Shown here piece by piece: positions 21,300-43,078 of a DNA stretch of 64,000 bases (positions are counted from its first letter, which is position 1; each line of letters starts with the position of its first letter). The notes under the pieces were generated by a model. It had not been told where the DNA came from and searched no databases. It saw only the letters and a list, made by a program, of their open reading frames with translations. Origin of the DNA: an uncultured Solirubrobacterales bacterium (GTDB lineage: Bacteria; Actinomycetota; Thermoleophilia; Solirubrobacterales; 70-9); the NCBI GenBank assembly GCA_963704515.1, contig OY969913.1, forward strand, positions 1,352,137 to 1,416,136, given 5' to 3'. The position numbers were made by a program, and so were the translations under genes.

Positions 21300-22774
21300 G
21301 CGCTCGGGAGCACGCGCGGTTGGGCTTGGTCCTCGGCTTGTCATTCAGCTTCGCGTTGCTTGCGGCCGGCGCCGCCTCGGGCGCGGCGGCGCCGGCGGAC
21401 CTCGATCGCTCGTTCGGCCACCACGGCGTCGCCCTGGTGGAAGGGCCGGCCGGCTCCCAGTTCCACACCCAGGCACCGGCGAAGATGGCGCTGGGCCCGG
21501 GCGGAGAGATCTTCGTCCTCTACGCGAATCAGGCGCCCTGCTCGGGGTTCAGCGGCTGCTCGATCGAATGGTCAGTGGCGCGGTTCAGCGCCGAGGGCGT
21601 TCGGGACGCCGGCTTCGGCAGCGGCCCGGGCTCGACGCTGACGGTTCGCGGCAACGAATACGAGCCGGCCGACCTGGCGGTCGGGCCGGACGGCAAGCCG
21701 GTGGTGGCGGCCCTCGATCAGAACCGGGTTGTGGTGGCTCGCTTCGACCAGGCAGGTCACCTGGAAGCGATGCTCGGCTCGAACGACGGCAATCCGCCCT
21801 TCGGCGACGCATACGAGCCGCCGGTGCTCGCCGTACAGGAAGACGGCAAGGTCCTGGTCGGGGTCGGTAACCCCGAAGTGCTGCGCGTCGTCCGCTACCT
21901 GCCGAACGGAGAACGCGACCCCGAGTTCGGCAGTGGCGGCGAAGCGACGCTGGCGCTGGAAACGCGGAACCGACCGGCCGGGCTGATGCTTGGCGCCAAC
22001 GGGACGATCTCGGTCGCCGCGCCGCAATGCTGCGGCGGCTCGCCGCCCTACGGCGAAGGGTTCGCCCTCGCCAGGTTCCTGGCAAACGGTCAACCCGATC
22101 CGGCGCTGGCGAGACGCGGGCAGATCCTGTTTCCCACGGCGAACGCGAGGGGCAACGTCAACGCCGCGACCCTCGCTCCCGACGGCGGCGTTTACATCGC
22201 CTTCGAAGTGAGCACCGAAACGACGAGCACGATCGGGCTCGTGGTCAAGCTGCGGCCCGACGGCAGCATCGACACCGGCTTCGGCAAGAACGGCTACAGC
22301 CGCTTCCCGATCTCGGTCAAGGCACTCGCCGTCGACGGCAGTGGACGGCTCATCGCCGGTGGCTGGATCGGTGGCGCCGCGGTCGCCCGCATGCGCCCGG
22401 GCGGCGGGCTCGACCGGACCTTCGCCGCCGGCACGGAGGCGAAGCTGGCGGCAAGCGGTCCCGCCACCGCGGTCGGCCTGCAGGGCAAGGGCCGGATCGT
22501 CGCCCTGACCGAACCGTGCTGCGGGACGACGAAATCGTTTTCCCTCTTCCGGTTGATCGGCGGCACCACGCACGCCCGCTGCCTCGGCCACAAGGCGACG
22601 ATCGTCGGCACCGCCAAACGCGACGAAATCGAAGGCACCCCGCACCGCGACGTGATCGCGGCCCTCGGCGGCGCCGACAAAGTGCGCGCCCTCGGCGGGC
22701 CGGACATCATCTGCGGCGGCAAGGGCAAAGACGAACTCTTCGGCGGCCCCGGACGCGACACGGTGCGGCCCTGA
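21290..22774 (+). CDS. secreted delta-60-type repeat protein with C-terminal RTX-like Gly/Asp repeats
   Basis: Signal peptide. Recurring units of the form VARF..AG, VVRYLPNGERDPEFGSGG, LARFLANGQPDP, VKLRPDGSIDTGFGKNG, ARMRPGGGLDRTF. The tail is GGADKVRALGGPDIICGGKGKDELFGGPGRD. Confidence 0.7.
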   Translation: MVVSAREHARLGLVLGLSFSFALLAAGAASGAAAPADLDRSFGHHGVALVEGPAGSQFHTQAPAKMALGPGGEIFVLYANQAPCSGFSGCSIEWSVARFSAEGVRDAGFGSGPGSTLTVRGNEYEPADLAVGPDGKPVVAALDQNRVVVARFDQAGHLEAMLGSNDGNPPFGDAYEPPVLAVQEDGKVLVGVGNPEVLRVVRYLPNGERDPEFGSGGEATLALETRNRPAGLMLGANGTISVAAPQCCGGSPPYGEGFALARFLANGQPDPALARRGQILFPTANARGNVNAATLAPDGGVYIAFEVSTETTSTIGLVVKLRPDGSIDTGFGKNGYSRFPISVKALAVDGSGRLIAGGWIGGAAVARMRPGGGLDRTFAAGTEAKLAASGPATAVGLQGKGRIVALTEPCCGTTKSFSLFRLIGGTTHARCLGHKATIVGTAKRDEIEGTPHRDVIAALGGADKVRALGGPDIICGGKGKDELFGGPGRDTVRP

Positions 22775-28474: not shown

Positions 28475-29920
28475 CTACCGCCACTGCTCGCGACTGACAT
28501 CGCCGCCGGCGCTGAGCACCAGGTGGACGCCGTCGAGGGCCGGGTCGGCGTGGGGGAAGTCGGCGCGCAGGTGTCCGCCGCGCGACTCCTCGCGGGCAAG
28601 GGCGGCGGTTGCGGTCGCCGCGGCGAGCGGGTAAGGGTCGCTGCGCAGCTGCTCGAGCTTCCGCGGCTCGCGCATCGGCCCGGCCAGCGCCCAGACCGCG
28701 TCGCGGGTCTCTTCGTTCGGCGGCTGGAAGCGCCAATCGCCCGGCTCGGGCGGGTTGGGCGCCGCCGTCTCGGTCAGCGCCGTCGCGGCTGCCCGGCCAC
28801 CGAAGACGAAGCACTCGCTGAGCGAGTTGGAGGCGAGCCGGTTGGCGCCGTGCAGACCAGTGCAGGCGCACTCGCCCACCGCGAACAGCCCAGGAAGGGA
28901 GGAGCGACCGTCGAGGTCGACCGCGATCCCGCCCATCGTGTAGTGGGAGGCCGGGGCGACCGGCACCGGGTCGGCCGCGGGGTCGAGCCCGGCCTCGGCC
29001 AGCGTCTCGAAGACGTTGGGGAAGCGGGCCGGGTCGATCCCGCGCAGGTCGAGCATCACGGCCTCGGTGCGGTCGGCCGCAAGCCGGTCGAGCACGGCCG
29101 CGGTGACCGCGTCGCGCGGGGCGAGCTCGTCGGTGAAGCGGCGGCCGGCCGAGTCGAGCAGGGTCGCTCCCTCGCCACGCACCGCCTCGGTGATCAGCAT
29201 CCCGTCGAAGCGGCTGCCGGGCAAGGCCAGGGTGGTCGGGTGGAACTGGCAGAACTCGAGGTCGGCGAGCTCGGCTCCGGCGGCGGCCGCCATCGTCGGC
29301 CCGGCGCCGATCGCGCCGCGCGGATTGCTGGTCCGCCGCCAGAGCGCCGCGGCGCCGCCGGTGGCCAGGACGGTCGCCGCGGCGGCGACCCGGCTGCCGT
29401 TGAGGACCGCGCCGTGGCAACGCTCGCCGTCGCTCCACAGCGCTCGCATCGAGGCGCGCTCGCGGACCTCGATCCGCGGCTCGGCGGCGACCATCGCAGC
29501 GAGCTTGGAGGTGATCTCGTGCCCGGTGGCGCTGCCGCCGGAGTGGACGATGCGCCGCCGGGTGTGGCCGCCCTCGAGGCCAAGCGCCAACGCGCCGTCC
29601 GCGTCTAAGTCGAAGGAGACGCCGCGCTCGCGCAGCTGGCGGACCGCCTCGGGCGCCTCCTCGACCAGCACCTGCACGGCCGAGGGCCGGCAGAGGCCGC
29701 GGCCGGCGGCGATCGTGTCGGCGGCGTGCTGGGCGGGCGAGTCGCCGGGCTCGAGCGCCGCGGCGAGCCCGCCCTGGGCCCAGAAGCTGGCGCTCTGCGA
29801 GAGCGGCGTGCGCGAGACGAGGCAGACCGAGCCGCCCGCCTCGGCCGCGCGCAGCGCGGTCCAGAGGCCGGCCGCGCCGCCGCCGATGACGACGACGTCG
29901 AACTCGTCCGTTGGCGCTAT
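28475..29920 (-). CDS. nadB: L-aspartate oxidase (start codon non-canonical or lost; see findings)
   Basis: The same frame as track ORF 28475..29677 stays open upstream and encodes DEFDVVVIGGGAAGLWTALRAAEAGG...FWAQGGLAAAL, the FAD-binding N-terminus. Downstream: HYTMGGI, GECACTGLHGANRLASNSL, ESRGGH. Confidence 0.8.
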   Translation of the reverse strand: MAPTDEFDVVVIGGGAAGLWTALRAAEAGGSVCLVSRTPLSQSASFWAQGGLAAALEPGDSPAQHAADTIAAGRGLCRPSAVQVLVEEAPEAVRQLRERGVSFDLDADGALALGLEGGHTRRRIVHSGGSATGHEITSKLAAMVAAEPRIEVRERASMRALWSDGERCHGAVLNGSRVAAAATVLATGGAAALWRRTSNPRGAIGAGPTMAAAAGAELADLEFCQFHPTTLALPGSRFDGMLITEAVRGEGATLLDSAGRRFTDELAPRDAVTAAVLDRLAADRTEAVMLDLRGIDPARFPNVFETLAEAGLDPAADPVPVAPASHYTMGGIAVDLDGRSSLPGLFAVGECACTGLHGANRLASNSLSECFVFGGRAAATALTETAAPNPPEPGDWRFQPPNEETRDAVWALAGPMREPRKLEQLRSDPYPLAAATATAALAREESRGGHLRADFPHADPALDGVHLVLSAGGDVSREQWR

Positions 29921-30234
29921 TGCCGCGCCTCTCGGCGGATCGCCTCGACCTGACCGCGGAGCCAGGCGGCCGCCGCCTCGCGGGCGCGCGCCCGCTCCTC
30001 CTCGACCGCGCCCTCGGCCGCGGCGGCGCGCTTCTCCGCCTCCTCGATCCGCTGCTCGGCCGCGGCGGTCTGGGTCTCGATCTCGGCGAGGCGGCCCTCG
30101 GCCTCGGCGACGACCCGGTCCTTGGCCTCGCGCTCCTTCTCGAGGTCGCTCTCCAGCGCCTCGATCTCGGCGGCGACGCGCTTCTCGGCAACGCTCGCCG
30201 CCGCCGCGGCCTCCTCCAGCCGCTTCTTCGCCAT
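29917..30234 (-). CDS. Glu/Ala-rich coiled-coil protein (105 aa)
   Basis: The ATG at 30234 gives MAKKRLEEAAAAASVAEKRVAAEIEALESDLEKEREAKD... Its TAG stop overlaps the ATA codon in front of the nadB FAD motif. Confidence 0.5.
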   Translation of the reverse strand: MAKKRLEEAAAAASVAEKRVAAEIEALESDLEKEREAKDRVVAEAEGRLAEIETQTAAAEQRIEEAEKRAAAAEGAVEEERARAREAAAAWLRGQVEAIRREARQ

Positions 30235-30337
30235 CTCAACCTGGGCGCTGAGGTCGCCGCTGCTGGGTTGGGTGTGCCCGTCGCTCACTGCAATCAATCT
30301 ATTACGGAGCGGCCCGGCGGGGCGTACAATTCGCTAC

Positions 30338-30559
30338 GTGGCCACAAAAGCCCGAAGCCGCCCACTCCTAGCCCCCGGCAACGAGGAGGAGTGGGCGCGG
30401 CTGAACGCAGAGAAGCGCGAATACCACCAGCGGACCGCACGGGCGCTGACGCCGTCGGAGCGCATCGTCAGCGGTCAGAAGCTCTCTCAACAGGCGGTTT
30501 CGCTGCTGGCTGCGGTTATACGAGGTGGCCATGTGCCAGGACGAGCCTTCTGGTCCTGA
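30338..30559 (+). CDS. small protein (73 aa), possible partner of the downstream NTase-fold protein
   Basis: The GTG at 30338 lies 7 nt after a TACAAT -10 hexamer (30325-30330), which looks leaderless. Overlaps the next ORF by 35 nt. Confidence 0.4.
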   Translation: MATKARSRPLLAPGNEEEWARLNAEKREYHQRTARALTPSERIVSGQKLSQQAVSLLAAVIRGGHVPGRAFWS

Positions 30560-31043
30560 CCTCGACGGAGTCGTGGCCGATGCCAACGCCGTTGGCCTGC
30601 GTTATGTCGTGATCGGCGGCTTCAGCGTCATAGCCAACGGCTTTCTGCGGGCGACCAAGGACTCCGATCTGCTCGTGCCTGACGGCCGCGAGACCGACGA
30701 AGCGATCATCCGCTTTCTCGAGCGCGTGCAGGCGACCCGCCTTCATGACGGTAAGTCCCTGAATCTCGACGACGTCCTCGACGCTCACCACATCCGCATC
30801 CGCAGCAAGCATGGCATCGTCGACATCATGAGGGGCGGCCTGCCGCCCCTCGACTACGAGACTGTCGACAAGCGGGCGATCGATGCCGAAGTCGGTGGGC
30901 AGCCGGCCCGTTTCGCCGGCCTTCGCAGCATCGTCGGCTTCAAGCGGCTCGCCGGCCGACCTCAGGACAGGCGCGACCTGGAAGAGCTCGAGTCCTTCTA
31001 CGGCGAGCTGCCGATCGAGCCGATCCCGGGGCTCGATTCCTGA
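30525..31043 (+). CDS. minimal nucleotidyltransferase-fold protein
   Basis: YVVIGGFSVIANGFLRATKDSDLLV (G[GS]...D-x-D NTase signature) and C-terminal LRSIVGFKRLAGRPQDRRDLEEL. Confidence 0.6.
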   Translation: MAMCQDEPSGPDLDGVVADANAVGLRYVVIGGFSVIANGFLRATKDSDLLVPDGRETDEAIIRFLERVQATRLHDGKSLNLDDVLDAHHIRIRSKHGIVDIMRGGLPPLDYETVDKRAIDAEVGGQPARFAGLRSIVGFKRLAGRPQDRRDLEELESFYGELPIEPIPGLDS

Positions 31044-31049
31044 CGGCGC

Positions 31050-31991
31050 CTACGCGGGCCTGAGCAGGTCGCGGTAGGCCTCGATCGTGCGCTCGGCCAT
31101 GCGGGTGGCGGAGAGGGTGGACGCGCGGGCAGCGCCCTCGACTCGGGGGTCGGCGGCGTCGAGGTGGGGGAGGGCGGCGGCGGTCCAGGCCGCCAGGTCG
31201 AAGGGCGCGCAGAGCGTGCCGGCGATGCCGGCGAGCGCGTAGGGGGCGATGCCGACCGGGGTCGAGAGCACCGGCACGTCGCAGGCCAGCGCCTCGACCG
31301 CGACCATCCCGAAGCCCTCGTACTCGGAGGTGACGAGCACGGCGTTGGCGGCGTTGACCCAGAGCGGCATCGCCTCGGGCTCGATCGCGCCGCCGGTAAG
31401 CAGCTCCGCGTCGCAGGCGGCGGCGAGCTCCGCCGCCCGGTCGTGGCGCTTCCCGGGTCGCGAGGGGTTGGCTGGGAAGAGCAGGTAACGGCCGTCGGGC
31501 ACGAGCCCGAGCGAGGCCCGCGCCTCGGCGCGCGGCATCGGCCGGAAGCGGGTCAGGTCCGGGCCGCAGGGCAGCACGGCAGAGCCGGGCACCCGCGGCA
31601 GTCCGGGACGCCCCGCCTCGGGCGCGAAGAGCGCCCTTGAGACAGCGGCGACCATGTCCGCCCGCTGGACGAGGCGCCGCGAGAGCGGTCCGACCACGCG
31701 GTGGCGCACGTCGGTGCCGTGGAAGCTGACCAGCAGCGGCCGCGCTCCGGCCAGCAGCGCGCACCACCCCGGCAGCCCGTAATGCGCATGCACCAGGTCG
31801 AAGCGCTCGTCGCGCAGGAGTCGCCGCAGCCTCCGGGCGGCCGGGATGTACTGACGCGATCCCGGCGGGAACGCGAACACCTCCACCTCGACCCCCGCGC
31901 GCCGCATCTCCTCGACCTGGTCCCGAACCCAGCGCCCCCGCTGCGGCGCCCCCTCATCGGGCAGGAAGTTGGTGACGACCAGCACTCGCAT
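31050..31991 (-). CDS. GT4-family glycosyltransferase
   Basis: The ATG at 31991 gives MRVLVVTNFLPDEG... C-terminal VLVTSEYEGFGMVAVEALACDVPVLSTPVG (E-x7-E region). Confidence 0.8.
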   Translation of the reverse strand: MRVLVVTNFLPDEGAPQRGRWVRDQVEEMRRAGVEVEVFAFPPGSRQYIPAARRLRRLLRDERFDLVHAHYGLPGWCALLAGARPLLVSFHGTDVRHRVVGPLSRRLVQRADMVAAVSRALFAPEAGRPGLPRVPGSAVLPCGPDLTRFRPMPRAEARASLGLVPDGRYLLFPANPSRPGKRHDRAAELAAACDAELLTGGAIEPEAMPLWVNAANAVLVTSEYEGFGMVAVEALACDVPVLSTPVGIAPYALAGIAGTLCAPFDLAAWTAAALPHLDAADPRVEGAARASTLSATRMAERTIEAYRDLLRPA

Positions 31992-32077
31992 GCAGGGCCG
32001 GGAGGCTATTCCCCGCTCCCCCCGTTGCCTGCAAACTGCCCTACGGAGCCGCATTCCTTCTTAACAAAAACATTGAC

Positions 32078-32106
32078 TTGCATTCGTAAACCAAATCTTT
32101 TATGCT
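32078..32106 (+). promoter_or_regulatory. sigma-70-like promoter TTGCAT-17 nt-TATGCT upstream of the secreted-protein operon
   Basis: Read directly in an AT-rich stretch. An overlapping TTGACT sits at 32073-32078. About 110 nt of leader, then the AAGGAGAGAG ribosome-binding site. Confidence 0.45.
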
Positions 32107-32220
32107 GCCGCCAGCCCGTTTGCGAAATCGGGTGACTACAGGGACATAACCGAGCCTCGAGGAAGCCGCCATAGGGAGGCGGTGGGCAGAGGGGCTCACG
32201 GGACAAGGAGAGAGATCTAG

Positions 32221-33555
32221 ATGTTCTCGACGCTACGCAGTCGCTTTGCAATCCTGCTCGCCGTCGCGGCGGCGTTCGCGCTTGTTCCGGCGGCTCAGGC
32301 GCTTGCCGCCCAGACCGCGAAGGTCAATATCGAAGGCAACGGCAGCGGTGAAGTCGTCAGCGAAGGCACGATTGTCGAAAGCGGAGCCGGCACCCCGCCG
32401 ATCGCGTGTACCTACGTGTCACCGGGCCCGAAGGCCGGGACATGCGAAACCGTGCCGGGCGCGTTGGAAGAAGGAGAAGGCTTCTACGGCGTTCCCCTGG
32501 TGGCCAAGCCGGCCACCGGCTCCGAATTGGTCGAATGGACCCTCCAGAAGGGAAGCAAGTTCTTTTTTGGTTGCGAAACCAACCTGGAATGTCCGTTGGT
32601 CAGTCAAGAAGAAGAAGAAGAAGAACTCGAAGCAACCGCGATCTTCGCCCTCGAGCCCACCCTGACGATCAGCGAAAGCGGCGCCGGCTCGGGCACGGTC
32701 GAATGCGAAGTCGACGGCGGCGGGCTGCAAGCCTGCCCGGCCACCGCGCCCAACGGCAGCGAAGTCAAAGTCGTGGCCACCCCGGACCTGGGCTCCGAAC
32801 TGGCCCTCAGCGGCAGCGGCTCCGCCGCGGGCTGCTCTTCCTCCCCGTGTGTATTCACGCTCGAAGAAGACAGCGCCCTGAACGTCAAGTTCATCACCCC
32901 CGGCCTCACCGTCTACCTCGGCGGCAGCGCCGAAGGCAGCGTCGTCTCGACCTCCCCCGACAGCGCGATCGACTGCGGCAGCTCATGCTCGGCGGCCTAT
33001 GAAAGCGGCACGGTTGTCACGCTCGAAGCACAGCCTCAGTCGGGAGCGGTCTTCGCCGGCTGGATCGGTTGCCGCCACACCGGGACCCAGACCTGCGAAG
33101 CGACGATCGATGGCGAAACCGAAGTCACTGCCGTCTTCGTCAAGAACGGCGTCACCGGCCCGACCGGGCCACAGGGACCCAAAGGCTCGACCGGAGCAAG
33201 CGGCGAAGCCGGAGCAACCGGCCCGCAGGGACCCGCCGGGCAGGCAGGCGCCAACGGCGCCCCGGGCCCCGCGGGCGCCCAGGGCCCGGCAGGCCCGCAG
33301 GGCAAGCAGGGACCGGCAGGCAAGGTCAAGGTCACCTGCAAGGTCAAGGGCAAGAAGGTCAAGTGCACGGTGCAGAGCACCAAGAAGAGCGCTCGCAAGC
33401 GCCTGCGCTGGAGCCTGCACCGCGCCGGTCACACCCTGAGCCACGGCTCGAGCAGCTCAGCCGCCCTGCAGCGGGTGCTCAACCGCCTGCGGCCCGGCCA
33501 CTACAGCCTGCATCTGGCCGGCCAGGGCAAGGCCACCCGCCTGGCGATCCACTAG
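32221..33555 (+). CDS. secreted protein A: three B-repeat-like Cys-containing domains, collagen-like G-X-Y region, Lys-rich C-terminal domain
   Basis: Signal peptide ...[11 protein letters not shown]. Domains resemble [12 protein letters not shown]...C and [46 protein letters not shown]...[16 protein letters not shown]. 19 G-X-Y triplets. [17 protein letters not shown] tail. Confidence 0.8.
33148..33324 (+). repeat. collagen-like G-X-Y triplet repeat coding region (about 19 triplets)
   Basis: [59 protein letters not shown]. Confidence 0.9.
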
Positions 33556-33594
33556 CGAGCCCCAAGCCAAGGCGCCGAGGAGAGAGGAACCCCG

Positions 33595-36500
33595 ATGAGC
33601 AAGCACGTCAAAAGCCCCACCCACGCCGCTCGCCCCGCGGCCCTCCTCGGCGCCATGGCCGCGGCGCTCGCCTGCCTGGCGCTACTCGGCGCCTCATCTG
33701 CCTCCGCGGCCTTCGAAGGGGTGGGGCACTTCGCTGGGAAGGCAGGGGAACTGCACAAGGAATCGTCATCCGAATGGCCCGAAGAAGTGCAGCTCGGCGG
33801 CCTCGGCGGCATGGCGGTCAACTACACCGGAGCCGGGGGGGTGCCGGCTGGGACCGTCTACGTGGCGACCGACCAGTACCCAAGCGCGCACATCGCCCGC
33901 TACAACCCCGACGGCAGCTTCAGTGAGCGCTGGACCTTCAAGGGCCACCCCGAACCCGAAGAACGCTGTGGCCCCGAAGGCGCCGCAGCTCACCCGGTGT
34001 GCAAAAGCCAGCCTGGAGGCAACACCAACAACACGGTCGATGTAGACGTCGACCAGACCACCGGCTACGTCTACGTGTTCGGCGGCGAAAACGCCCAGTC
34101 ATCAGGCGAAAAGATCATCCACGCCTACACCCCCGACGGCTCGGAAGTGATCGCCGAATTCGGCGAAGCCGAACCCTATCAGGGCAAGAGCACCGCGGAA
34201 AGCCCCGAAAAGCTGCACGCGCTGGTCTCCGCCGAACTCGGTGCGCTCGCCGTCAACTCCGCCGGGGACGTCTACGTCTACGACATCAACCGCTCCTCGC
34301 ACTCGATCAACGGCTCGGGGGAAGTGAGCGAATACCACCGCCTGATGGAGTTCGAACCGGAAAGTCCCGGCGACTACGAACACTACGTCTACGCCGGGCA
34401 GAGCCACGATGTGCAGGCGGGATTCGAAGGCGAATCTAAGCTTCCCTCGATGCCCGTAGCCGACGCGGCCGGGAACCTCTACGTCTCCGAATTCGAAGGC
34501 GGCTACGTTCAGAAGCTCGACCCGCACCAGCCGGGCGCGGCACCGCTTTGCGAATTCAAGGTGCCCGGCAGCGGCGTCTATTCGCTGACGGTCAATCCCC
34601 TGACCGGCGAAGCCTTCTTCTTCTCCGAAAAGAATCGCCGGATCCACCAGCTGAGCGCCGGCTGCAACGGCGAAGGCAAGTTCACCGAAACGAGCAGCTT
34701 CGCGATCTCGCCCAACAGGAGCTACATCACCGGTATGGCCCTCGACCCCGCGCGCGTGTTCAGCGCCGGAAGGCCGGCGGGAGTGCTCTACGCGGGTTCC
34801 CCCGACAGCGAAGGCGGACTTACCGAAGGTTCCTATCCCGAAACCCTGGTCGAATCCGCCCTGGGCTACATCTTCGCCCAGCCCCCCGAAATACCGCCGA
34901 CGGTGGAAGCCGAGACGGTCGCCCACGTGACGCCGACCACTGCCACGCTCTCGGCCACGGTCAACCCGAAGGGATCGACCACCCGCTACGTCTTCCAGTA
35001 CGAGACCGAGTCCGCCTACGAGGAAAACGAACCGAGCGAACGCTTCGCCGGGGCGATGGAATCGCCGCTGGGCGGCGCCTTCGCCGGCGAAGAAAACAAA
35101 GCGGTCACGGTGAGCGCTTCTCTTGCCGGGCTGAGCCCGGCCACCGCCTATCGCTTCCGCGCCGTCGCGACCAGCCACTGCTCGGAACCCGAACCCGAAA
35201 AGCTCTGCGAAACGGCGGGCGAAGCGGTGGCCTTCCGCAGCTTCTCGCTGCAGGCCCCCGGCCTGCCCGACCAGCGCGCCTACGAGCTCGTCTCGCCGGT
35301 CGAGAAGGGAGGCGGCGAGGTGATCCCGGCCGAACCACTGAACAGCAGCTGTCCCTTTGGAACTCCCTGTAAGCCGGGAAATAAGTACGAAGACTTCCCA
35401 ATGCAGGCCGCTCCCGACGGCAACTCGGTCGTCTACGAGGGCAGCGCCTTCGACTCCGAACACGCGGCCCTGCTGGCCAACCAGTACATCGCCCGCCGCA
35501 CCTCCTCGGGCTGGCAGACGACCAACCTCACGCCCACCCATTTGGGAAGCTCGGGCCGCCAGGGCTACAAGGCCTTTGCCACCGACCTGGGCAAGGGGGT
35601 GCTTCGCCAGGCAAGCCCAGAGCTCAGCCCTGAGGCACCCGCCGGCTACCAAGATATCTACGCCCAGCCGAGCGGCAACCCCCCGGCGCTGACGCCACTG
35701 CTCACCGAAGGCCAGGCCTTCAACCGCCCAGCCTCGGAATTCGAACTCGAATACGCGGGCGCCTCGGCCGACCTCTCGCGGATCTTCTTCCGCGCCAACG
35801 ACGCGCTCAGCGAAGGAACCGCCTTCGCCCCCGCTGCGGTCGACGGCGGCAAGGAAAAGGACAACCTCTATGAATGGCACGAAGGCGGGATCTCCCTGGT
35901 CAACGTGATGCCGGGCAACTCCGAAACCCAGCCCGGCGCCTCCTTCGGAGCGCCCAGCACCCACCCGATCTCTGAAGACGGCGCCAGGGCCTTCTTCTCC
36001 GACGAAGCGGGACAGGTCTATGTGCGCGAAGGCGGCGAAGCCACCAGGGAGATCGAGACCGAAGGGGTGCCCGACCCGGGCGAGTTCCTCGTCGCGGCCA
36101 AGGACGGCTCGGCGGTGCTGCTCGCCAACGGGCACCTGCACTACCTCGACGAAGAAGGAGAACCAACCGAAGACCTGACCCAGGGCAAGGGCGGCTTCCA
36201 GGGGGTCGTGGGCGAAAGCGAAGAGCTAACCCACGTCTACTTCGTCGACACCGAAGTGCTCGACGAAGCGCCCAACGAACGCGGCGAAGGAGCCGAAGAA
36301 GGCAAGAACAACCTCTACGCCTGGGGGCAGGGCGAAGGGACGCGCTTCGTGGCGCGGCTGTCCACCAAAGACAATCCGCAATTTGGCGGCGGTGACTGGA
36401 AACCTCCCTACGAACGCACCGCCGAGGCGAGCCCGAATGGGCGCTATCTCGCCTTCCTCTCGGTGGCGCCGCTGAGCGGCTATGACAGCACCGGGCCCTG

Positions 36501-37245
36501 CGAAGAAATCTCCGGCACGAACGTCTTCAAACAGGTGCCCTGCCAGGAGGCCTTCCTCTATGACTCGGCCACCGGCAAGCTCCTCTGCGCCTCGTGCAAC
36601 CCTTCGGGCGAGCGGCCGCTGGGGAGGACCTTCCTGCGGCTGCCCTCGCTGCAGGGACGAGAAACACAGCTCCAGCCCCGCTACCTGACCGACCAGGGCC
36701 GCCTCTTCTTCGACAGCCGCGACTCGATCGTGCCAGCCGACTCAAACGCCGGGGTCGAAGACGTCTATCAGTGGGAGCCGAGCGGCGTCGGCGACTGCGA
36801 ATCGCAGTTCGCCGAAGGCGGCTGCGTGCGGCTGATCTCGGCCGGGACCGGCACCGCGGACTCCAACTTCGTGACCATGGACCCGAGCGGTCAGAACGTC
36901 TTCTTCACCACCCGCGACCAGCTGGCGCTCAAAGACAGAGACGACCTCTATGACCTCTACGACGCCCGGGTGGAAGGCGGGATCGGGGCGGAAACCGAAA
37001 TCTCCCGCGCCGAATGCCAGGGCGAAGCCTGCCAGCCGCCGGTCTCGGCGCCCAACGACGCCACCCCGAGCTCCTCTTCCTTCGAAGGCCCGGGCAACCC
37101 CAGGGAAGCCAAGGCCAAGAAGCACAAGAAGAAGAGGCATAAGAAGAAGCACTCCCGCCACGCCCACAAGCACGGCAAGAAGCACGGAAGGCAAAAGCGC
37201 CACGGCAAGCGAGCCGCCAAGCCCAACCATGGAGGTGCCAAGTGA
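33595..37245 (+). CDS. secreted 1216-aa protein B: two repeated propeller-like regions, an FN3-like segment, polybasic K/H/R tail
   Basis: Signal peptide ...GASSASA/AFEG. NHL-like units (GTVYVATD, GYVYVFGG, GDVYVYD, GNLYVSEF). PD40/TolB-like units (APDGNSVVYEG, SEDGARAFFSD, SPNGRYLAFLS, DPSGQNVFFTT). Tail KAKKHKKKRHKKKHSRHAHKHGKKHGRQKRHGKR. Fold labels are inference. Confidence 0.8.
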   Translation: MSKHVKSPTHAARPAALLGAMAAALACLALLGASSASAAFEGVGHFAGKAGELHKESSSEWPEEVQLGGLGGMAVNYTGAGGVPAGTVYVATDQYPSAHIARYNPDGSFSERWTFKGHPEPEERCGPEGAAAHPVCKSQPGGNTNNTVDVDVDQTTGYVYVFGGENAQSSGEKIIHAYTPDGSEVIAEFGEAEPYQGKSTAESPEKLHALVSAELGALAVNSAGDVYVYDINRSSHSINGSGEVSEYHRLMEFEPESPGDYEHYVYAGQSHDVQAGFEGESKLPSMPVADAAGNLYVSEFEGGYVQKLDPHQPGAAPLCEFKVPGSGVYSLTVNPLTGEAFFFSEKNRRIHQLSAGCNGEGKFTETSSFAISPNRSYITGMALDPARVFSAGRPAGVLYAGSPDSEGGLTEGSYPETLVESALGYIFAQPPEIPPTVEAETVAHVTPTTATLSATVNPKGSTTRYVFQYETESAYEENEPSERFAGAMESPLGGAFAGEENKAVTVSASLAGLSPATAYRFRAVATSHCSEPEPEKLCETAGEAVAFRSFSLQAPGLPDQRAYELVSPVEKGGGEVIPAEPLNSSCPFGTPCKPGNKYEDFPMQAAPDGNSVVYEGSAFDSEHAALLANQYIARRTSSGWQTTNLTPTHLGSSGRQGYKAFATDLGKGVLRQASPELSPEAPAGYQDIYAQPSGNPPALTPLLTEGQAFNRPASEFELEYAGASADLSRIFFRANDALSEGTAFAPAAVDGGKEKDNLYEWHEGGISLVNVMPGNSETQPGASFGAPSTHPISEDGARAFFSDEAGQVYVREGGEATREIETEGVPDPGEFLVAAKDGSAVLLANGHLHYLDEEGEPTEDLTQGKGGFQGVVGESEELTHVYFVDTEVLDEAPNERGEGAEEGKNNLYAWGQGEGTRFVARLSTKDNPQFGGGDWKPPYERTAEASPNGRYLAFLSVAPLSGYDSTGPCEEISGTNVFKQVPCQEAFLYDSATGKLLCASCNPSGERPLGRTFLRLPSLQGRETQLQPRYLTDQGRLFFDSRDSIVPADSNAGVEDVYQWEPSGVGDCESQFAEGGCVRLISAGTGTADSNFVTMDPSGQNVFFTTRDQLALKDRDDLYDLYDARVEGGIGAETEISRAECQGEACQPPVSAPNDATPSSSSFEGPGNPREAKAKKHKKKRHKKKHSRHAHKHGKKHGRQKRHGKRAAKPNHGGAK

Positions 37246-40064
37246 GGACCGCGAAGACACTCTCCGCCCTGGCGGCCCTGCTCATCGCCCTGCTCGTCCC
37301 CGCGGCCGCCCGTGCGGACTTCGGCATCGAACCCGGCAGCGTCACGGTCACCGCCCGCAACGCCGACGGCACGATCGACACCCAGGCGGGTTCTCACCCG
37401 GCGAGCTTCGTCGTTCACTTCAAGCTGAAGACCAACCCCGACGGCACGACTGAAGGCGGGCAGATGCGCAACGTGATCGTCGACCTGCCGCCGGGCTTCA
37501 GCGGAGATCCGCAGGCGATCCCCACCTGCCCGCGAAAGCTGTTCGAGGGCGTGCTGCCGGCCTGCCCGGTCGAGACTCAGGTGGGCTTGATCCACACGAC
37601 GTCGCCGAGCATTCTGGGCGCGGAAATCAAGCTCCCCGTATACAACCTCGCCCCGCCGCCGGGAATCACGGCCCAGCTCGCCTTCTCCGGGGTCGAACTG
37701 ACCTCCCTGCAGCCGGTCTCGGTCAACACCGAATCGGGCTACGGCATCCACTTCGCGGCGATAAACGCGCCGGTCGAAGTCAGCGAAATCACCGAGACGA
37801 TCTGGGGCGTGCCCGCCGCCGAATATAACGATGCGAGGCGCGGCCAGCTCGCCGCCGAAGAAAACGGCGTCGGCGGCCAACCGGTGCCCTCCACCGCCCC
37901 CGAAAAGGCCTTCCTCACCCTGCCGGCCTCCTGCGGGGAAGCGCCGAAGACCACGGTCTCGGTCGACTCGGTGCAGGAACCGACCCACTACGACTCCGAA
38001 ACGGTCGAAGCGCTGAACGCCGCCGATCAGCCCCAGCCGATGAGCGGCTGCGCCGGGGTGCCCTTCAACCCCGAACTCTCCTCGCAGCCGACATCGAGGC
38101 TGGCGACCAACCCCTCGGGCCTCGACTTCACCCTGAAGCTCCACAACGACGGGCTCACCTCCCCGCACGGGATCGCGGAAACCGAGCCTGAGAAGGTCGC
38201 GGTCACGCTGCCCGAAGGGCTGACTATCAACCCCTCCTTCGCGTCGGGCGTCGGCACCTGCTCGGAGGCCCAATACAAGGCCGAACAGCTCGACTCCAAA
38301 GCGGGCGAAAACTGCCCCGAAGGCTCGAAGATCGGCTCGCTGATCGTCCACACCCCGCTGCTCGAAGAACCGATCGAAGGGGCGCTCTACCTGGCGGCGC
38401 CCTATACGAATCGCTTCGGCACCCTCGGCGCCATGTACATGGTCGGCAGAGCCCCAGAACGCGGCTTCCTGCTCAAGCAGGCGGGCAAGATCGAATTCGA
38501 CCAGTCGACCGGGCAGATCACGACCACCTTCGAAGACCTGCCGCCACTGGCCTTCTCCGAATTCAAGCTGCACTTCAGAGAAGGAGCGAGGGCGCCGCTC
38601 TCAACGCCGCAGGCCTGCGGCGAATACAAGACCACGGCGCTCTTGACCCCCTTCTCATCGAGCACCCCGGTGGAAAGAACCGCCTCCTTCCAGATCGAAC
38701 ACGGCTCCGAAGGCGGCGAATGCCCCACGGGCGGCACGCCGCCCTTCAAGCCGGGGCTGATCGCGGGGAGCATCAACAACGCCGCGGGTCGCTTCTCCCC
38801 CTTCAACGTGCGCCTCTTCCGCACCGACGCAGAACAGGAGATCACCCACTTCTCGATCAAGCTGCCCCCGGGAGTCGCCGCCAAGCTGGCGGGCATCCCC
38901 TTCTGCTCGGAGGCGGGCATCAGTCAGGCGCTCAGTCGCGAACGAGTCTCAGGCGGCGGCCGGGCGGAGATCGCAGACCCCTCCTGCCCGGCGGCATCTG
39001 ACATCGGCCACTCCCTGGTCGGGGTCGGGGTCGGCTCGGCGCTCACCTACGTGCCCGGCTCGGTCTACCTCGCCGGCCCCTACCACGGCAGCGCGATCTC
39101 GATCGTCGCGATCACCCCGGCGGTGGTCGGCCCCTTCGACGTCGGCACCGTGGTCGTCCGCCAGGCGCTGAGGGTTGACCCCGAAACCGGGGAAGTCTTC
39201 GTCGACGCCACCGGATCGGACCCGATCCCCCACATCGTCGACGGCATCCCGGTGCGCCTCCGCGACATCCGCGCCTACGTCGATCGCCCTAACTTCGCGA
39301 TCAACCCGACCGGCTGCAACCCGACCTCGACCGCCTCGACCCTGCTGGGATCGGGCACCAACTTCGCCACAGAAGCAGACGACCGCCCGGTGACCGTCGC
39401 CACCCGCTACCAGGCAGCCGACTGCTCGGCGCTGCCCTTCAAGCCAAAGCTCTCGCTGAAGCTCAGGGGAGCGACCCGCCGCGGCGGCAACCCCGCCCTT
39501 CACGCCGTGCTTCGCATGCACGGGATCGGCGAAGCGGGCATCGAGCGCGCCCAGGTCACCCTGCCGCACTCGGAGTTCATCGACAACGCCCACTTCAAGA
39601 CGATCTGCACCCGGGTGCAGTTCAAGGCGGGCAATGTCCCGGGCGAAAAGTGCCCCCCCGGCTCGATCTACGGCAAAGCCAAGGCCTACACCCCGATCCT
39701 CTCCGAAGCATTGACCGGCCCGGTCTACCTGCGCTCCTCCGAACACGAACTCCCCGACGTGGTCGCCTCGCTTCACTCCGGGGAGATCGACGTGGTGCTC
39801 GACGGGCGGATCGACTCGGTCAAGGGCAAGCTCAGAACCACCTTCGAATCGGTCCCCGACGCCCCGGTCTCGGCCGCGGTCTTCGACTTCTCAGGCGCCA
39901 AGAAGGGGCTCTTCGAAAACTCGACCAACCTCTGCGCGGCACCCCACCGAGCGATCGCCGCCTTCACCGGGCACAACGGCAAGACCCATGACTTCAACCC
40001 CGTTGTGAAGCCGACCGGTTGCCGCAAGGCCCACCACAAGAAGCACAAGGCCCACAAGCGGTGA
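37242..40064 (+). CDS. secreted 940-aa protein C: internally duplicated, four Cys-pair modules, basic tail
   Basis: The GTG overlaps the stop of B (GTGA). Signal peptide ...VPAAARA/DFG. Repeated LP-x-G...C...CP...G-x-(V/L)YL modules and the repeated C[AS][GA][VL]PF[NK]P[EK]LS motif. Tail CRKAHHKKHKAHKR. Confidence 0.8.
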   Translation: MRTAKTLSALAALLIALLVPAAARADFGIEPGSVTVTARNADGTIDTQAGSHPASFVVHFKLKTNPDGTTEGGQMRNVIVDLPPGFSGDPQAIPTCPRKLFEGVLPACPVETQVGLIHTTSPSILGAEIKLPVYNLAPPPGITAQLAFSGVELTSLQPVSVNTESGYGIHFAAINAPVEVSEITETIWGVPAAEYNDARRGQLAAEENGVGGQPVPSTAPEKAFLTLPASCGEAPKTTVSVDSVQEPTHYDSETVEALNAADQPQPMSGCAGVPFNPELSSQPTSRLATNPSGLDFTLKLHNDGLTSPHGIAETEPEKVAVTLPEGLTINPSFASGVGTCSEAQYKAEQLDSKAGENCPEGSKIGSLIVHTPLLEEPIEGALYLAAPYTNRFGTLGAMYMVGRAPERGFLLKQAGKIEFDQSTGQITTTFEDLPPLAFSEFKLHFREGARAPLSTPQACGEYKTTALLTPFSSSTPVERTASFQIEHGSEGGECPTGGTPPFKPGLIAGSINNAAGRFSPFNVRLFRTDAEQEITHFSIKLPPGVAAKLAGIPFCSEAGISQALSRERVSGGGRAEIADPSCPAASDIGHSLVGVGVGSALTYVPGSVYLAGPYHGSAISIVAITPAVVGPFDVGTVVVRQALRVDPETGEVFVDATGSDPIPHIVDGIPVRLRDIRAYVDRPNFAINPTGCNPTSTASTLLGSGTNFATEADDRPVTVATRYQAADCSALPFKPKLSLKLRGATRRGGNPALHAVLRMHGIGEAGIERAQVTLPHSEFIDNAHFKTICTRVQFKAGNVPGEKCPPGSIYGKAKAYTPILSEALTGPVYLRSSEHELPDVVASLHSGEIDVVLDGRIDSVKGKLRTTFESVPDAPVSAAVFDFSGAKKGLFENSTNLCAAPHRAIAAFTGHNGKTHDFNPVVKPTGCRKAHHKKHKAHKR

Positions 40065-40843
40065 GCCGCCGGGCGGGGGCCCTGGCTTTGGCAGGGGCGC
40101 TCCTCCTCACCATGGGAGGAGTCGCCCTCGCGGTGACCGTGCGATCCGAAGGCCTGCAGATCAGCGCCCTGGCCCAGGTAAAGCCCTACAAGCTCCCCAG
40201 AGCCAAACCGGCCCCGATCGCGGTCTTTATCGCCGGGCACCTGCAAAGCGCCAGGGGCGGCATCCCCCCACAGCTGCGGGAACTGAGGATCGAGGTAAAC
40301 CGCCACGGCCTGCTGCAATCCAGGGGCCTGCCCACCTGCCCGGTATCGCGCATCCAGCCCGCCACCACCTCAAGGGCGCTATCTGCCTGCGGGGAAGCGC
40401 TGATCGGCTCCGGGCAGTTCTGGGCAAACATCGTCTTGCCAGACCAGGGCGCCTACCGCACCCAGGGACGGCTCTCGATCTTCAACGGCAAGAGCAAGGG
40501 AAGACCCGCCGTCTTGGCCCAGATCTTCACCTCCCACCCCTTCAACTCCTCATTCGTGATCCCCTTCTCGATAAGGCACGTCTCCAAGGGCCCCTACGGC
40601 ACCGAGCTTCACGCCTCCCTGCCCCAGGCCCTGGGCGAATGGGGCTACCTGGACCGCATCAAGCTCACCCTGCGAAGGAAATACACCTTCAAGGGACAGC
40701 AGCTCTCCTACTTCAACGCCGCCTGCCCGGCCCCGGGCAACGCCAAGCGCACCTCCTTCCCGCTCGCCTACGCCAGCTTTGCCTTCGCCGGGCAAAAGAG
40801 CGTCGGCATCGCCGTCAACAAGTCATGCGGCGTCAAGGAATAG
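40061..40843 (+). CDS. secreted/anchored protein D (260 aa), carries one module related to protein C
   Basis: The GTG at 40061 overlaps the stop of C (GTGA). N-terminal hydrophobic ALALAGALLLTMGGVALA. GLPTCPVSRIQPATTSRALSACGEALIGSG resembles AIPTCPRKLFEGVLPACPVETQVG in C. Confidence 0.7.
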   Translation: MSRRAGALALAGALLLTMGGVALAVTVRSEGLQISALAQVKPYKLPRAKPAPIAVFIAGHLQSARGGIPPQLRELRIEVNRHGLLQSRGLPTCPVSRIQPATTSRALSACGEALIGSGQFWANIVLPDQGAYRTQGRLSIFNGKSKGRPAVLAQIFTSHPFNSSFVIPFSIRHVSKGPYGTELHASLPQALGEWGYLDRIKLTLRRKYTFKGQQLSYFNAACPAPGNAKRTSFPLAYASFAFAGQKSVGIAVNKSCGVKE

Positions 40844-40861
40844 ATGAGAGGAGAGCAGAAG

Positions 40862-41938
40862 ATGAGCAAGACGACCATTGCAAGCGCCCTGGCGGGGCTC
40901 TGTGCCCTGGGCCTGGCCCTCGCCCCGAGCGCCCAGGCCAAATACGACCCCCTGGGATCGGGCTCCCTGAAGCTCTCCCTCGACAAGCGCTTCGCCCGCT
41001 TCCTGCACGATGACGAAGTCAAGCTCACGGGCTCCGAAGGAGCGACCCGCAAGGCAGGGGCGATCCTGCTTGGAATCGACGCCGGCCACATGGACCCCAC
41101 GCTGGGCAAGGGCCAGGCAAACGCGGCGGGCACGCTCGTCTTCTCCAACCAGCGAAAGAAGGTCCCCCTGCGAGAGATCAGGGTCAAGGCGAAGCCCACC
41201 CCGCTGATCGCCAAGGTGGGGGGCTCCCAGCTGAAGGTGGCCGCCGCCAAGAAGACATCGGCGGGCAGGGCGGGCTTCGGCACCAAGTTCATCGCCACCA
41301 AGCTGACCCTGACCGCCAAGCTCGCCACCCGCCTCAACAAGAAGCTCCGCCCCAAGCTCCCCTTCTACGCCCACCAGCCCCTCGGCAAGCTCGTCCTGAA
41401 CGCCCAGCCCCAACTGGAGACGATCGAAGAAGGCGGCAGGGCGACCTTGGTCTTTGACTCCGGCTTCGCGGCAAAGCTCGCCTCCCGCTTCGTCGCGCTG
41501 AACCCGATCCATCCCGCCGAACACCTGGGAACCACCTTCACGATGCCGATCGCGATCGGCGGGCAGCTGGCCCCCGACGGATCGGAAGGCACGCTGCGGA
41601 CAGGCGGGACGATCGAAGCCCTGCAGCTGGGCGGCGGACAGGTCTTCTGGCAGGAGCTGTGGCTCGAAGTGGGAGCCGGGCAAACAAGCGCCGAAGTAGA
41701 TCTCGAGCCGACCCCCGCCTTTCCAGGAAAGCAGGGGCGGATCGGGGTCTTCTCCGCATCGCCTGGAGTCGTCTCCTCCGACCCCAAGGCGCGGACGATC
41801 TCCGACTCGGGGATCGGACTGGGGCTTCAGGGCTCAACCGCCGATGCGCTGAACGCGGCCTTCGCGCAGAACGAAGCGCCGGTGTTCGAGGCGGGGGAAG
41901 CGGTGGGGACGCTCTCGTTTACGGCGCAGGGGCAGTAG
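40862..41938 (+). CDS. secreted protein E (358 aa), two-domain, weakly HtaA-like pattern
   Basis: GGAGAG ribosome-binding site before the ATG at 40862. Signal peptide ...LAPSAQA/KYD. Two segments end in LT..A..LN-type motifs (LTLTAKLATRLNKKL; GSTADALNAAFAQ). The HtaA likeness is a weak inference. Confidence 0.7.
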   Translation: MSKTTIASALAGLCALGLALAPSAQAKYDPLGSGSLKLSLDKRFARFLHDDEVKLTGSEGATRKAGAILLGIDAGHMDPTLGKGQANAAGTLVFSNQRKKVPLREIRVKAKPTPLIAKVGGSQLKVAAAKKTSAGRAGFGTKFIATKLTLTAKLATRLNKKLRPKLPFYAHQPLGKLVLNAQPQLETIEEGGRATLVFDSGFAAKLASRFVALNPIHPAEHLGTTFTMPIAIGGQLAPDGSEGTLRTGGTIEALQLGGGQVFWQELWLEVGAGQTSAEVDLEPTPAFPGKQGRIGVFSASPGVVSSDPKARTISDSGIGLGLQGSTADALNAAFAQNEAPVFEAGEAVGTLSFTAQGQ

Positions 41939-42057
41939 GGGGCCTCCCCGAGTGGGGTAGGGGAGAGAAAAGACACAAAATTGGCACGTCCGCGTCTTGT
42001 TCCGTGCGCCTGAGCCGGTGAGCATCGGCCTCGCAATCGCGAACAAGGAGGCGTTCG

Positions 42058-42303
42058 ATGCTTTACATGGTGATGGGGTACCTGCACGCCGCAGTGGAGA
42101 CGCGGGTGCGGGCGATTCGCTCGCTTGCCGGCGACCGCGGCCAGGGGACGGTCGAGTACGTCGGCCTGATCCTGCTCGTCTCGCTGCTGATGGTCGGGAT
42201 GGTCGCGGCGATGAAGGGGTTCAACGGCAAGCAGGGCACCGAGTTGGCCGACGTGATCGTCAACAAGATCAAGGAAGCGGTCGACAAGGTGGCGTTCAAA
42301 TGA
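42058..42303 (+). CDS. Flp-like prepilin (class III signal peptide) protein, 81 aa
   Basis: AAGGAGG ribosome-binding site 6 nt upstream. ...LAGDRG/QGTVEYVGLILLVSLLMVGMVAAM fits the G/xxxxEY cleavage motif followed by a hydrophobic helix. Confidence 0.55.
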   Translation: MLYMVMGYLHAAVETRVRAIRSLAGDRGQGTVEYVGLILLVSLLMVGMVAAMKGFNGKQGTELADVIVNKIKEAVDKVAFK

Positions 42304-42431: not shown

Positions 42432-42668
42432 ATGAGGCACAGGACGCAGCTATATCTGGACGAGGGTCAGTACCGCTGGCTGAAGCAGCGCGCCGGCGAG
42501 GCGGGGAGCATCGCCGCGGTCGTTCGCGAGCTGATCGACGCCGAGCGGGCGCGGGTCGTCGACCGCGGCGCCGATCCGTTGCTCAGCTACCTCGTCGACG
42601 AGGCGCCGGGGCAGGGCCGCCGGGGCACCAGCGTCGCCAGCCTCGATGCCGACCTCTACGGGCCATGA
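42432..42668 (+). CDS. vapB: ribbon-helix-helix (CopG-like) antitoxin
   Basis: MRHRTQLYLDEGQYRWLKQRAGEAGSIAAVVRELID. Its stop overlaps the vapC ATG (ATGA). Confidence 0.7.
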   Translation: MRHRTQLYLDEGQYRWLKQRAGEAGSIAAVVRELIDAERARVVDRGADPLLSYLVDEAPGQGRRGTSVASLDADLYGP

Positions 42669-43078
42669 AGTCGGTCTTCATCGACACCAGCGCCTTCGTC
42701 GCGCTGCGCAACTCGGCCGAGGCCGAGCACGAGCGGGCACGGGAGGCGCTGGGCGAGCTGATCGCCGAGGGCGTCGCCCTCTTCACCTCGAACTACGTCT
42801 TCGCCGAGACCTACACGGCGCTGATGGTGCGCGTCGGTCGCGGCGAGGCGATCGAGTGGGGGCGGCGCTTCCGCGGCGGCGGGGCGATCGACCTCGTCCA
42901 CCTCGACCGGCCGACGGAGGAACGCGCCTGGGAGATCCTCGAGCGCCACGAGGACAAGCGCTGGAGCTACGTCGACGCGACGTCCTTCGCGCTGATCGAG
43001 CGTGACGGGGGAGAGGAGGCGTTCGCGTTCGACTCCCATTTCGCCCAGCGCGGCCTGCGCGTGGTGCCCCGAGCGTAA
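42665..43078 (+). CDS. vapC: PIN-domain toxin
   Basis: MKSVFIDTSAFVAL..., internal E (FAETY), and C-terminal SYVDATSFALIE...FAFDSHF acidic residues of the PIN fold. Confidence 0.8.
   Translation: MKSVFIDTSAFVALRNSAEAEHERAREALGELIAEGVALFTSNYVFAETYTALMVRVGRGEAIEWGRRFRGGGAIDLVHLDRPTEERAWEILERHEDKRWSYVDATSFALIERDGGEEAFAFDSHFAQRGLRVVPRA

Follow-up and report, generated by a model that had tools for sequence, protein, structure and literature searches.

Five tightly packed genes, here called A to E, occupy positions 32221–41938 of a 64,000-nucleotide stretch of the genome of an uncultured Solirubrobacterales bacterium (hereafter, the window), and the question they raise is whether their products build one structure at the cell surface. 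An earlier reading of the letters (the original prediction) had proposed an undescribed surface or extracellular assembly. Based on comparison with related loci, A–E form a co-inherited, translationally coupled cassette of Sec-exported, non-enzymatic proteins, which shares a 5′ leader and is repeated and diversified within genomes. Moreover, the sequences make us confident that the cassette is built largely from unannotated protein families. The genes and the parts of their products are as follows.

32221–33555, plus strand: gene A, 444 amino acids (aa), the variable first gene of the cassette
33595–37245, plus strand: gene B, 1216 aa; signal peptide, variable NHL-type propeller, FN3-like domain, conserved PD40-type propeller, ECQGEACQ motif, linker and tail
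37242–40064, plus strand: gene C, 940 aa; four homologous all-beta modules with conserved Cys pairs (residues ~27–272, 273–497, 498–732 and 733–925), then a Cys and a polybasic tail
40061–40843, plus strand: gene D, 260 aa, GTG start, isoelectric point (pI) 10.8
40862–41938, plus strand: gene E, 358 aa, ATG start, pI 9.7; signal peptide, divergent HtaA-type beta-sandwich in the N-terminal half, uncharacterised C-terminal half

The co-directional, tightly packed arrangement of A–E was reproduced from the open reading frames (ORFs) and from third-position GC, which marks all five frames as coding in a window of about 70% G+C. Genes A and B are separated by 39 nucleotides (nt), the B/C and C/D junctions are GTGA overlaps, and D and E lie 18 nt apart, with an alternative ATG at 40844 near the D/E junction. 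Public gene calls of the same 2.85-Mb contig agree in length for C (940 aa), D (260 aa) and E (358 aa). The third-position GC of A–E (0.80–0.88) differs from that of the flanking genes (mostly 0.91–0.97), and the GC skew goes negative over the cassette (32221–41938). These two features could reflect another codon usage, for example that of high expression, or a foreign origin.

All five products begin with a hydrophobic, signal-peptide-like N-terminal segment, and a sequence scan of A–E detected no second transmembrane segment. The export-type N-termini and the lack of sorting signals and catalytic domains, both part of the original prediction, were upheld by motif and domain scans: A–E contain no detectable enzyme domain, no LP.[TSA]G sorting motif and no lipobox ([LVI][ASTVI][GAS]C) within their first 45 residues, and no sortase domain occurs among the 46 window proteins scanned. 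The signal peptide of B does contain a Cys, which is not kept in the family consensus. NCBIfam, PHROG and PADLOC scans of A–E gave matches only to the collagen repeats of A; likewise, single-sequence PDB searches with B, C and E and profile PDB searches with C and E returned nothing useful. In overall charge, A, B and C are acidic (pI 4.9–6.0), and D and E are basic.

The cassette recurs well beyond the window. A scan of species-representative genomes yielded 243 relatives, the best 78 loci being nearly all from metagenome-assembled genomes of uncultured Solirubrobacterales, and so are nearly all of the 80 related cassette loci compared here (L001–L080). Across these 80 loci, the order B-C is found in 79, B-C-D in 62, B-C-D-E in 38 and B-C-B-C in 10. 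This order is far beyond chance: it recurs in 62–79 of 80 independent loci, and it is kept at merely 50–65% protein identity. Furthermore, a 4-nt overlap joins B to C in 69 of 80 pairs and D to E in 21 of 32. B lies within 600 nt upstream of 85 of the 94 full-length C genes, and C is followed by D in 60 of these 94 cases. Fusions occur elsewhere, joining either the PD40 half of B to C (P0284 and P0303) or its NHL/FN3 half to C (P0279 and others). Collectively, the gene order, the B/C overlap and the B–C fusions in other organisms support the view of A–E as one functional unit, and the co-location in related genomes held.

Several versions of the cassette coexist in one genome. Single contigs of 1.1–1.3 Mb bear at least five cassettes, each of roughly 10 kb. 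The source genome of the window holds at least three C paralogues (100, 85 and 78% identity), together with at least three D and at least four E copies above 90% identity. Within genomes, the identity between paralogues is 44–78% for B, 61–92% for C and 91–98% for D; for E it is 88–96%, from one genome in which several E copies were compared.

B and C also share the way they end. The net charge of the last 30 residues has a median of +15 in B and +10 in C, and about 90% of members reach at least +6. This polybasic tail follows a conserved Cys and is retained in fused and giant relatives; D and E have none.

For B, the window protein lies below the Pfam cut-offs, and its domains were read from 37 homologues, of which 15 match NHL, 14 match PD40 and 14 match an FN3-like domain. 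Because of these matches, B is assigned as an NHL propeller, an FN3 domain and a PD40 propeller, so the two propeller-like regions originally described were confirmed through its homologues. After the Cys-rich motif ECQGEACQ come a linker and about 45 aa of polybasic tail. The invariant columns of B lie almost wholly within residues 450–1170, and therefore the N-terminal propeller is its most variable part.

For C, profile comparison of the modules (hhalign) upheld the four-module, Cys-pair architecture, with probabilities of 98% between modules 2 and 4, 96% between modules 2 and 3 and 71% between modules 1 and 2. The AlphaFold2 model of C is almost all beta, with a predicted local distance difference test (pLDDT) score of 78.5. 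The invariant Cys residues are paired, which suggests disulfides; a thioester reading of CSEAQ in module 2 was considered by eye only. No sequence relative of C was found in Pfam, NCBIfam or PDB, profile search included. Relatives of C were found in 6,935 clusters at the 50% level (E ≤ 1e-3), 2,478 of them at 1e-30, and a word-indexed search gave more than 2,388 matches. All source names shown for cassette proteins are 'hypothetical protein'. In metagenomes, giant proteins of 2,100–7,200 aa (P0241, P0242, P0243, P0247 and P0317) carry 5–16 tandem C-type modules, and the full-length ones finish in a Lys-rich C-terminal region; the C module thus serves very long proteins elsewhere as well.

D is the most conserved component; behind its signal peptide lies a single all-beta domain, which contains two Cys pairs. 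It has 1,756 homologues, the best 120 of which are all at least 70% identical, and no relatives in Pfam, NCBIfam, PHROG, PADLOC or PDB. Its AlphaFold2 model has a pLDDT of 79 and a predicted template-modelling score of 0.76. The original description of D as a one-module relative of C failed at the sequence level (BLASTP E 0.2; hhalign probability below 1%). What D and a C module have in common is limited to the succession of secondary-structure elements and to where the two Cys pairs lie, and D is possibly, as modelled, a single C-like module. Among the loci, D comes in two subtypes with about 35% mutual identity, and two or three D genes stand in tandem at some loci (subtype and tandem examples: L009 12770–14346, L011 12664–16082, L077 14254–17858 and L027 14710–15504). 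Since neither C nor D has a relative in the databases searched, the description of the unit as undescribed stands.

The B-repeats and collagen-like segment of A were recovered as described, with Pfam matches to the InlB B-repeat (Flg_new_2, 1.8e-12) and to Collagen (1.3e-9); the collagen stretch counts 20 uninterrupted G-X-Y triplets at residues 310–369, and the C-terminal region is Lys/Arg-rich. The first nine residues of A, MFSTLRSRF, are common, with one substitution, to collagen-like first genes elsewhere. Such a first gene, of about 260 aa, opens many cassettes (L001 2293–3081, L022 5546–6313 and 23 more loci). Its first 24 residues, MFSTLRTRFGIPGVISVIALVFAM, are near-identical in 25 loci, with one I/V difference, and its globular C-terminus ends in GTWAVTA. 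The NCBIfam equivalogs for collagen adhesins (Scl/Lcl) give A 43.8, 41.9 and 37.6 bits, where their cut-offs are 325, 500 and 400.

Upstream of A, the most conserved part of the cassette is not protein-coding. The features of this region are as follows.

32073–32106, plus strand: AT-rich promoter-like stretch TTGACT...TATGCT with a 22-nt spacer, a weak candidate only
32138–32210, plus strand: conserved leader of about 73 nt, starting ACAGGGACAUAACC; the start ATG of A is at 32221
32153–32159, plus strand: GAGCCUC, 5′ arm of the outer stem P1, followed by GAGGAA
32165–32170 and 32178–32183, plus strand: GCCGCC and GGCGGU, hairpin P2, with the loop AUAGGGA
32191–32197, plus strand: GGGGCUC (P1′), preceded by GGGCAGA and followed by AC and GGGACAAGGAG, with the Shine-Dalgarno sequence at 32206–32210

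Between 32135 and 32254, the window is 85–96% identical in DNA to about 60 of the 80 loci (blastn), in contrast to 50–65% for the proteins. This extreme conservation, the polybasic tails and the repetition and diversification of the cassette were all missed in the original prediction. An alignment of 57 leader sequences shows a near-invariant core of about 73 nt that ends at the Shine-Dalgarno sequence. In RNAalifold and single-sequence folding, P1 (GAGCCUC/GGGGCUC) encloses the P2 hairpin (GCCGC/GCGGC), the loop of which always contains AGGGA. RNAalifold found no covariation in this first leader alignment because the sequences are too similar. A covariance model of the leader gave 72 matches in 81 sources, on the cassette strand and upstream of the first gene, and finds a single leader in the window, at 103.5 bits. 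In the alignment fitted to the model, 98.9% of cells pair, and double changes occur at five pairs, compared with 0.1 in shuffled alignments and 0–1 in slid controls.

The leader is also widespread: soil metagenome contigs contain at least 120 exact copies of a 26-mer taken from it, and the gene that follows is of two main types, a collagen-like one beginning M(F/L)S.LR.RF and the B type. These metagenomic copies contain compensatory P2 variants (GUCGC/GCGAC, GACCGC/GCGGUC, GCCGUC/GACGGC and GCCGU/ACGGC), as well as P1 variants in which C is changed to U opposite G. No Rfam family matches the leader: a search of 31900–32400 (cmscan, E ≤ 10) turned up nothing beyond three chance hits to the minus strand, with scores well short of the gathering thresholds. 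We read the leader as a structured 5′ untranslated region (UTR) that would act at the RNA level; it is a candidate for a new cis-regulatory RNA. Its possible roles are mRNA stabilisation, as for S-layer genes, recognition of its GGGA motifs by a protein, or ligand binding; a CsrA-type reading of three GGGA/AGGA motifs is a lead only. The sigma-70-like promoter of the original prediction is not supported as a canonical one, as the hexamers are 22 nt apart and a consensus scanner reports no promoter at 32073–32106. The promoter-like stretch is common only to the closest related loci, in which the blastn alignment extends to query positions 1–23.

We propose the following model for the cassette. 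It consists of a structured leader, an optional, variable, collagen-like A, and then B, C, D and E, and is specific to Solirubrobacterales, with several copies per genome. All products are Sec-exported and none is an enzyme. B and C are produced in coupled amounts, and their polybasic tails would most likely hold the proteins non-covalently on the anionic cell envelope. The small basic D and E, almost identical between the cassettes of one genome, would probably be constant accessory or adaptor subunits, and A, the N-terminal propeller of B, and C would be the diversified, outward-facing parts. Together, the products would make up a variable coat or adhesin complex at the cell surface, and each cell would possess several alternative versions of it. 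The shared leader RNA would set the translation or mRNA stability of all versions, and local regulators would choose among them; such regulators, of the TetR type, flank 53 of the 80 loci. For the core of this model, a B–C complex held by its tails on an anionic envelope, with D and E as constant adaptors and with A, the N-terminal propeller of B, and C as exposed variable parts, we estimate a probability of about 0.5. The assembly into a fibre, sheath or adhesin that was originally proposed is an inference from the export signals, folds and tails. A broader claim is tentative and, on balance, doubtful, namely that the cassettes encode an unrecognised multi-subunit surface structure made of new families (C, D and the core of B), held by tails, present in alternative versions, all controlled by a single new class of structured leader RNA, and forming the main variable outer surface of an order of soil Actinomycetota that is abundant and largely uncultured.

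Several observations weigh against this model. A is very variable between loci, and E is missing from about half of them. A Foldseek search with the model of C (PDB and BFVD) returned generic immunoglobulin-like (Ig-like) domain arrays with template-modelling (TM) scores of at most 0.18, and the same kind of search with the model of D gave no PDB match at E ≤ 0.001 (best E 0.04, with TM ≤ 0.35 among the 50 matches listed). No Pfam SLH, CWB2, SLAP or LysM module was found in A–E or in the 37 B homologues. Moreover, the polybasic tails could have a different role altogether, for instance in attachment to DNA, metal or mineral surfaces. Finally, covariation backs the leader structure only modestly, in part through an alignment fitted to the model.

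A true S-layer is the first alternative: C, together with B, would form a regular two-dimensional lattice over the cell, the paralogous cassettes would encode alternative types, and the leader would be an mRNA-stabilising 5′ UTR. The fold matches of C include the Nitrosopumilus S-layer, integrin legs, the Saf pilus, MG domains and DUF11, and the best of them in PDB is indeed a Nitrosopumilus S-layer protein (8c8o; E 4e-9, probability 0.98). However, the TM score of this match is only 0.13, and it therefore reflects a string of Ig-like domains and not a specific fold. B and C have acidic bodies with basic tails, multiple paralogues exist, and the 5′ UTR is long and conserved with a predicted stem-loop. 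Similarly, S-layer slpA mRNAs use a long, structured, stabilising 5′ UTR, and the basic C-terminal regions of Lactobacillus S-layer proteins bind teichoic acids (PMC10221546). Against these likenesses stand the five co-conserved components, which are unusual for an S-layer, the lack of any SLH, CWB2 or SLAP domain in A–E and the B homologues, and the fact that no S-layer is reported for Solirubrobacterales in the literature searched. We regard a true S-layer as unlikely.

A ligand-capture complex, secreted or bound to the surface, has a similarly small chance. The HtaA domain of E and the propellers of B would bind a nutrient or polymer, and the cassettes would each be tuned to a different substrate and induced through a neighbouring TetR-type repressor, in the manner of polysaccharide utilization loci. 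The E family does match Pfam HtaA (PF04213), whose characterised members bind haem, in 107 of 116 homologues (best 6.9e-11); four E homologues that were checked score 31–34 bits over residues ~41–140, compared with a cut-off of 24. Window E, about 60% identical to HtaA-matching homologues, gives no HtaA match even at E ≤ 10. The E family is thus part of HtaA, a correction to the original description, although the window copy is below detection. Furthermore, TetR-family regulators (139 genes) flank 53 of the 80 loci (for example, L001 1546–2112 and L027 3742–4446), PucR-like regulator genes follow 13 of the 80 cassettes, and the N-terminal propeller, a presumed binding part, is where B varies most.

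The details of E argue the other way. Haem-binding CR domains universally have an axial Tyr that ligates the haem iron (PMC12494546), whereas the 116 E sequences contain no Tyr column conserved at 90% or more. The best, Y28, reaches 81%; it lies two residues past the signal cleavage site, as predicted by eye, and outside the Pfam-matched region. Because of this difference, a haem-binding role of E appears unlikely. No transporter gene in the window is associated with the cassette; ABC components there are confined to the Suf ATPase (15167–15943). In addition, the presumed binder E is a constant rather than a variable part, and the window copy has no TetR or PucR-like gene beside it within 22000–52000.

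That the five genes encode independent exoproteins, co-transcribed without any physical complex, is quite improbable. A and E are dispensable in many loci, as such a reading would allow, but the conserved 4-nt overlaps, the B–C fusions and an order maintained despite the divergence of the proteins speak against it.

The products could also be accessory or tip proteins of a Tad/Flp pilus, with the pilin encoded by the following gene.

42058–42303, plus strand: Flp-like ORF (...DRGQG/TVEYVGLILLV..., with a G/TVEY motif), starting 119 nt after E

This ORF, which has no Pfam match at E ≤ 0.1, favours a pilus by its motif and position. However, among the 80 loci, L014, the positional orthologue, is the sole one with an Flp-like gene and a GT4 gene near the cassette; there, E is missing and another gene separates D from the Flp-like ORF. 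Furthermore, no Tad machinery (ATPase, TadB/C platform or prepilin peptidase) was found in the 64-kb window. The link to a Tad pilus is thereby largely refuted, and we consider it very improbable. A motif regex found no Flp-like gene near other cassettes; this search also missed the known L014 copy and is weak. The GT4 glycosyltransferase gene divergent from the cassette and the Flp-like ORF after E are both present as originally described, but they did not stand as parts of the system, and they count as genomic context rather than components. In L014, as in the window, the orphan Flp-like gene adjoins a PIN gene.

A prophage or tailocin structural module, with a collagen-like tail fibre and Ig-like decoration proteins, is scarcely credible: the collagen repeats of A match PHROG tail-fibre families, and the lambda gpV Ig-like domain is a weak match to the profile of E (E 0.034), but the PHROG matches are confined to the G-X-Y repeats of A while B–E match nothing, the flanks consist of the GT4 gene and housekeeping genes (hydantoinase, RNase PH, Ham1, CDF, TldD/PmbA, Suf, GuaAB and GlmSM), and C has no relatives in IMG/VR contigs, GenBank phages or plasmids (PLSDB), which refutes a phage or mobile-element origin.

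Other neighbours of the cassettes were also recorded. A DUF6036-like nucleotidyltransferase gene, with a weak Pfam match, stands beside roughly a dozen cassettes, and PIN, HipA and HEPN/MNT toxin–antitoxin genes also occur near them. Genes of these types lie in L002 (16330–20188) and in the window as listed below. These recurring neighbours suggest that the cassettes reside in variable genome regions. The list also includes three window genes without a relation to the cassette.

29917–30297, minus strand: DUF6036-like or toxin–antitoxin type gene
30525–31043, plus strand: DUF6036-like or toxin–antitoxin type gene
42665–43078, plus strand: DUF6036-like or toxin–antitoxin type gene
2127–3380, plus strand: trypsin-family protease, with no link to the cassette
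21290–22774, plus strand: exported-type protein with DUF5122 beta-propeller repeats and one calcium-binding RTX repeat, unrelated to the cassette
57266–58240, minus strand: M23 peptidase with an FlgD Ig-like domain, with no link to the cassette

Defining the cassette names and bounds two or three new protein families, together with a candidate cis-regulatory RNA that is conserved beyond the proteins it precedes. It also gives an experimentally checkable hypothesis for the cell surface of Solirubrobacterales; the leader is common in soil metagenomes. If the split into variable and constant parts is true, it could explain a varied interface with soil particles, phages and other cells. If the assembly, the tail anchoring and the leader control are all true, the cassette would be a surface system of a new kind, along with a new RNA motif.

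No described system has the composition of the cassette. S-layer or adhesin loci and proteins with an HtaA domain come closest, and the cassette lacks those of their defining features that could be tested. Like the S-layer loci of Lactobacillus (slpA/cbsA) and Nitrosopumilus maritimus (8c8o), the cassette encodes exported, non-enzymatic proteins in paralogous copies behind a long structured 5′ UTR; the basic C-terminus is a plausible non-covalent wall anchor, and C is a string of beta-sandwiches whose best PDB match is 8c8o. In contrast to these loci, it has no SLAP, SLH or CWB2 domain and five co-conserved genes instead of one or two, its anchor would be a short, unstructured polybasic tail, its fold match is generic, and it has no known lattice.

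Similarly, E resembles corynebacterial HtaA/ChtA in that its family matches PF04213, is exported and occurs in Actinomycetota, but it differs in having no conserved axial Tyr, no membrane anchor and no linked hmuTUV, and the Pfam model does not recognise the window copy, which has diverged too far. A and other first genes bear G-X-Y repeats behind a signal sequence, as do Scl1/Scl2 of Streptococcus and Lcl of Legionella; BclA of Bacillus is another collagen-like surface protein. Unlike the Scl/Lcl proteins, A scores far below the equivalog cut-offs (43.8 compared with 325 bits) and has no LPXTG, and the flanking domains of the cassette first genes are B-repeats or the globular C-terminus ending in GTWAVTA. 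With sortase pili and MSCRAMM proteins, the cassette shares an operon of exported tandem beta-sandwich proteins in which a small conserved subunit stands beside large variable ones; it differs from them in having no LPXTG, no sortase gene and no detectable CnaA/CnaB or pilin domain.

Finally, the sap homologues of Campylobacter fetus are alternative surface-protein cassettes with conserved 5′ ends. Unlike in sap, there is no evidence of promoter inversion or recombination in our loci, where every cassette is preceded by a separate upstream region and many come with a separate regulator. Nevertheless, the two systems are alike in that paralogous cassettes share a near-identical 5′ leader and N-terminus while their bodies diverge.

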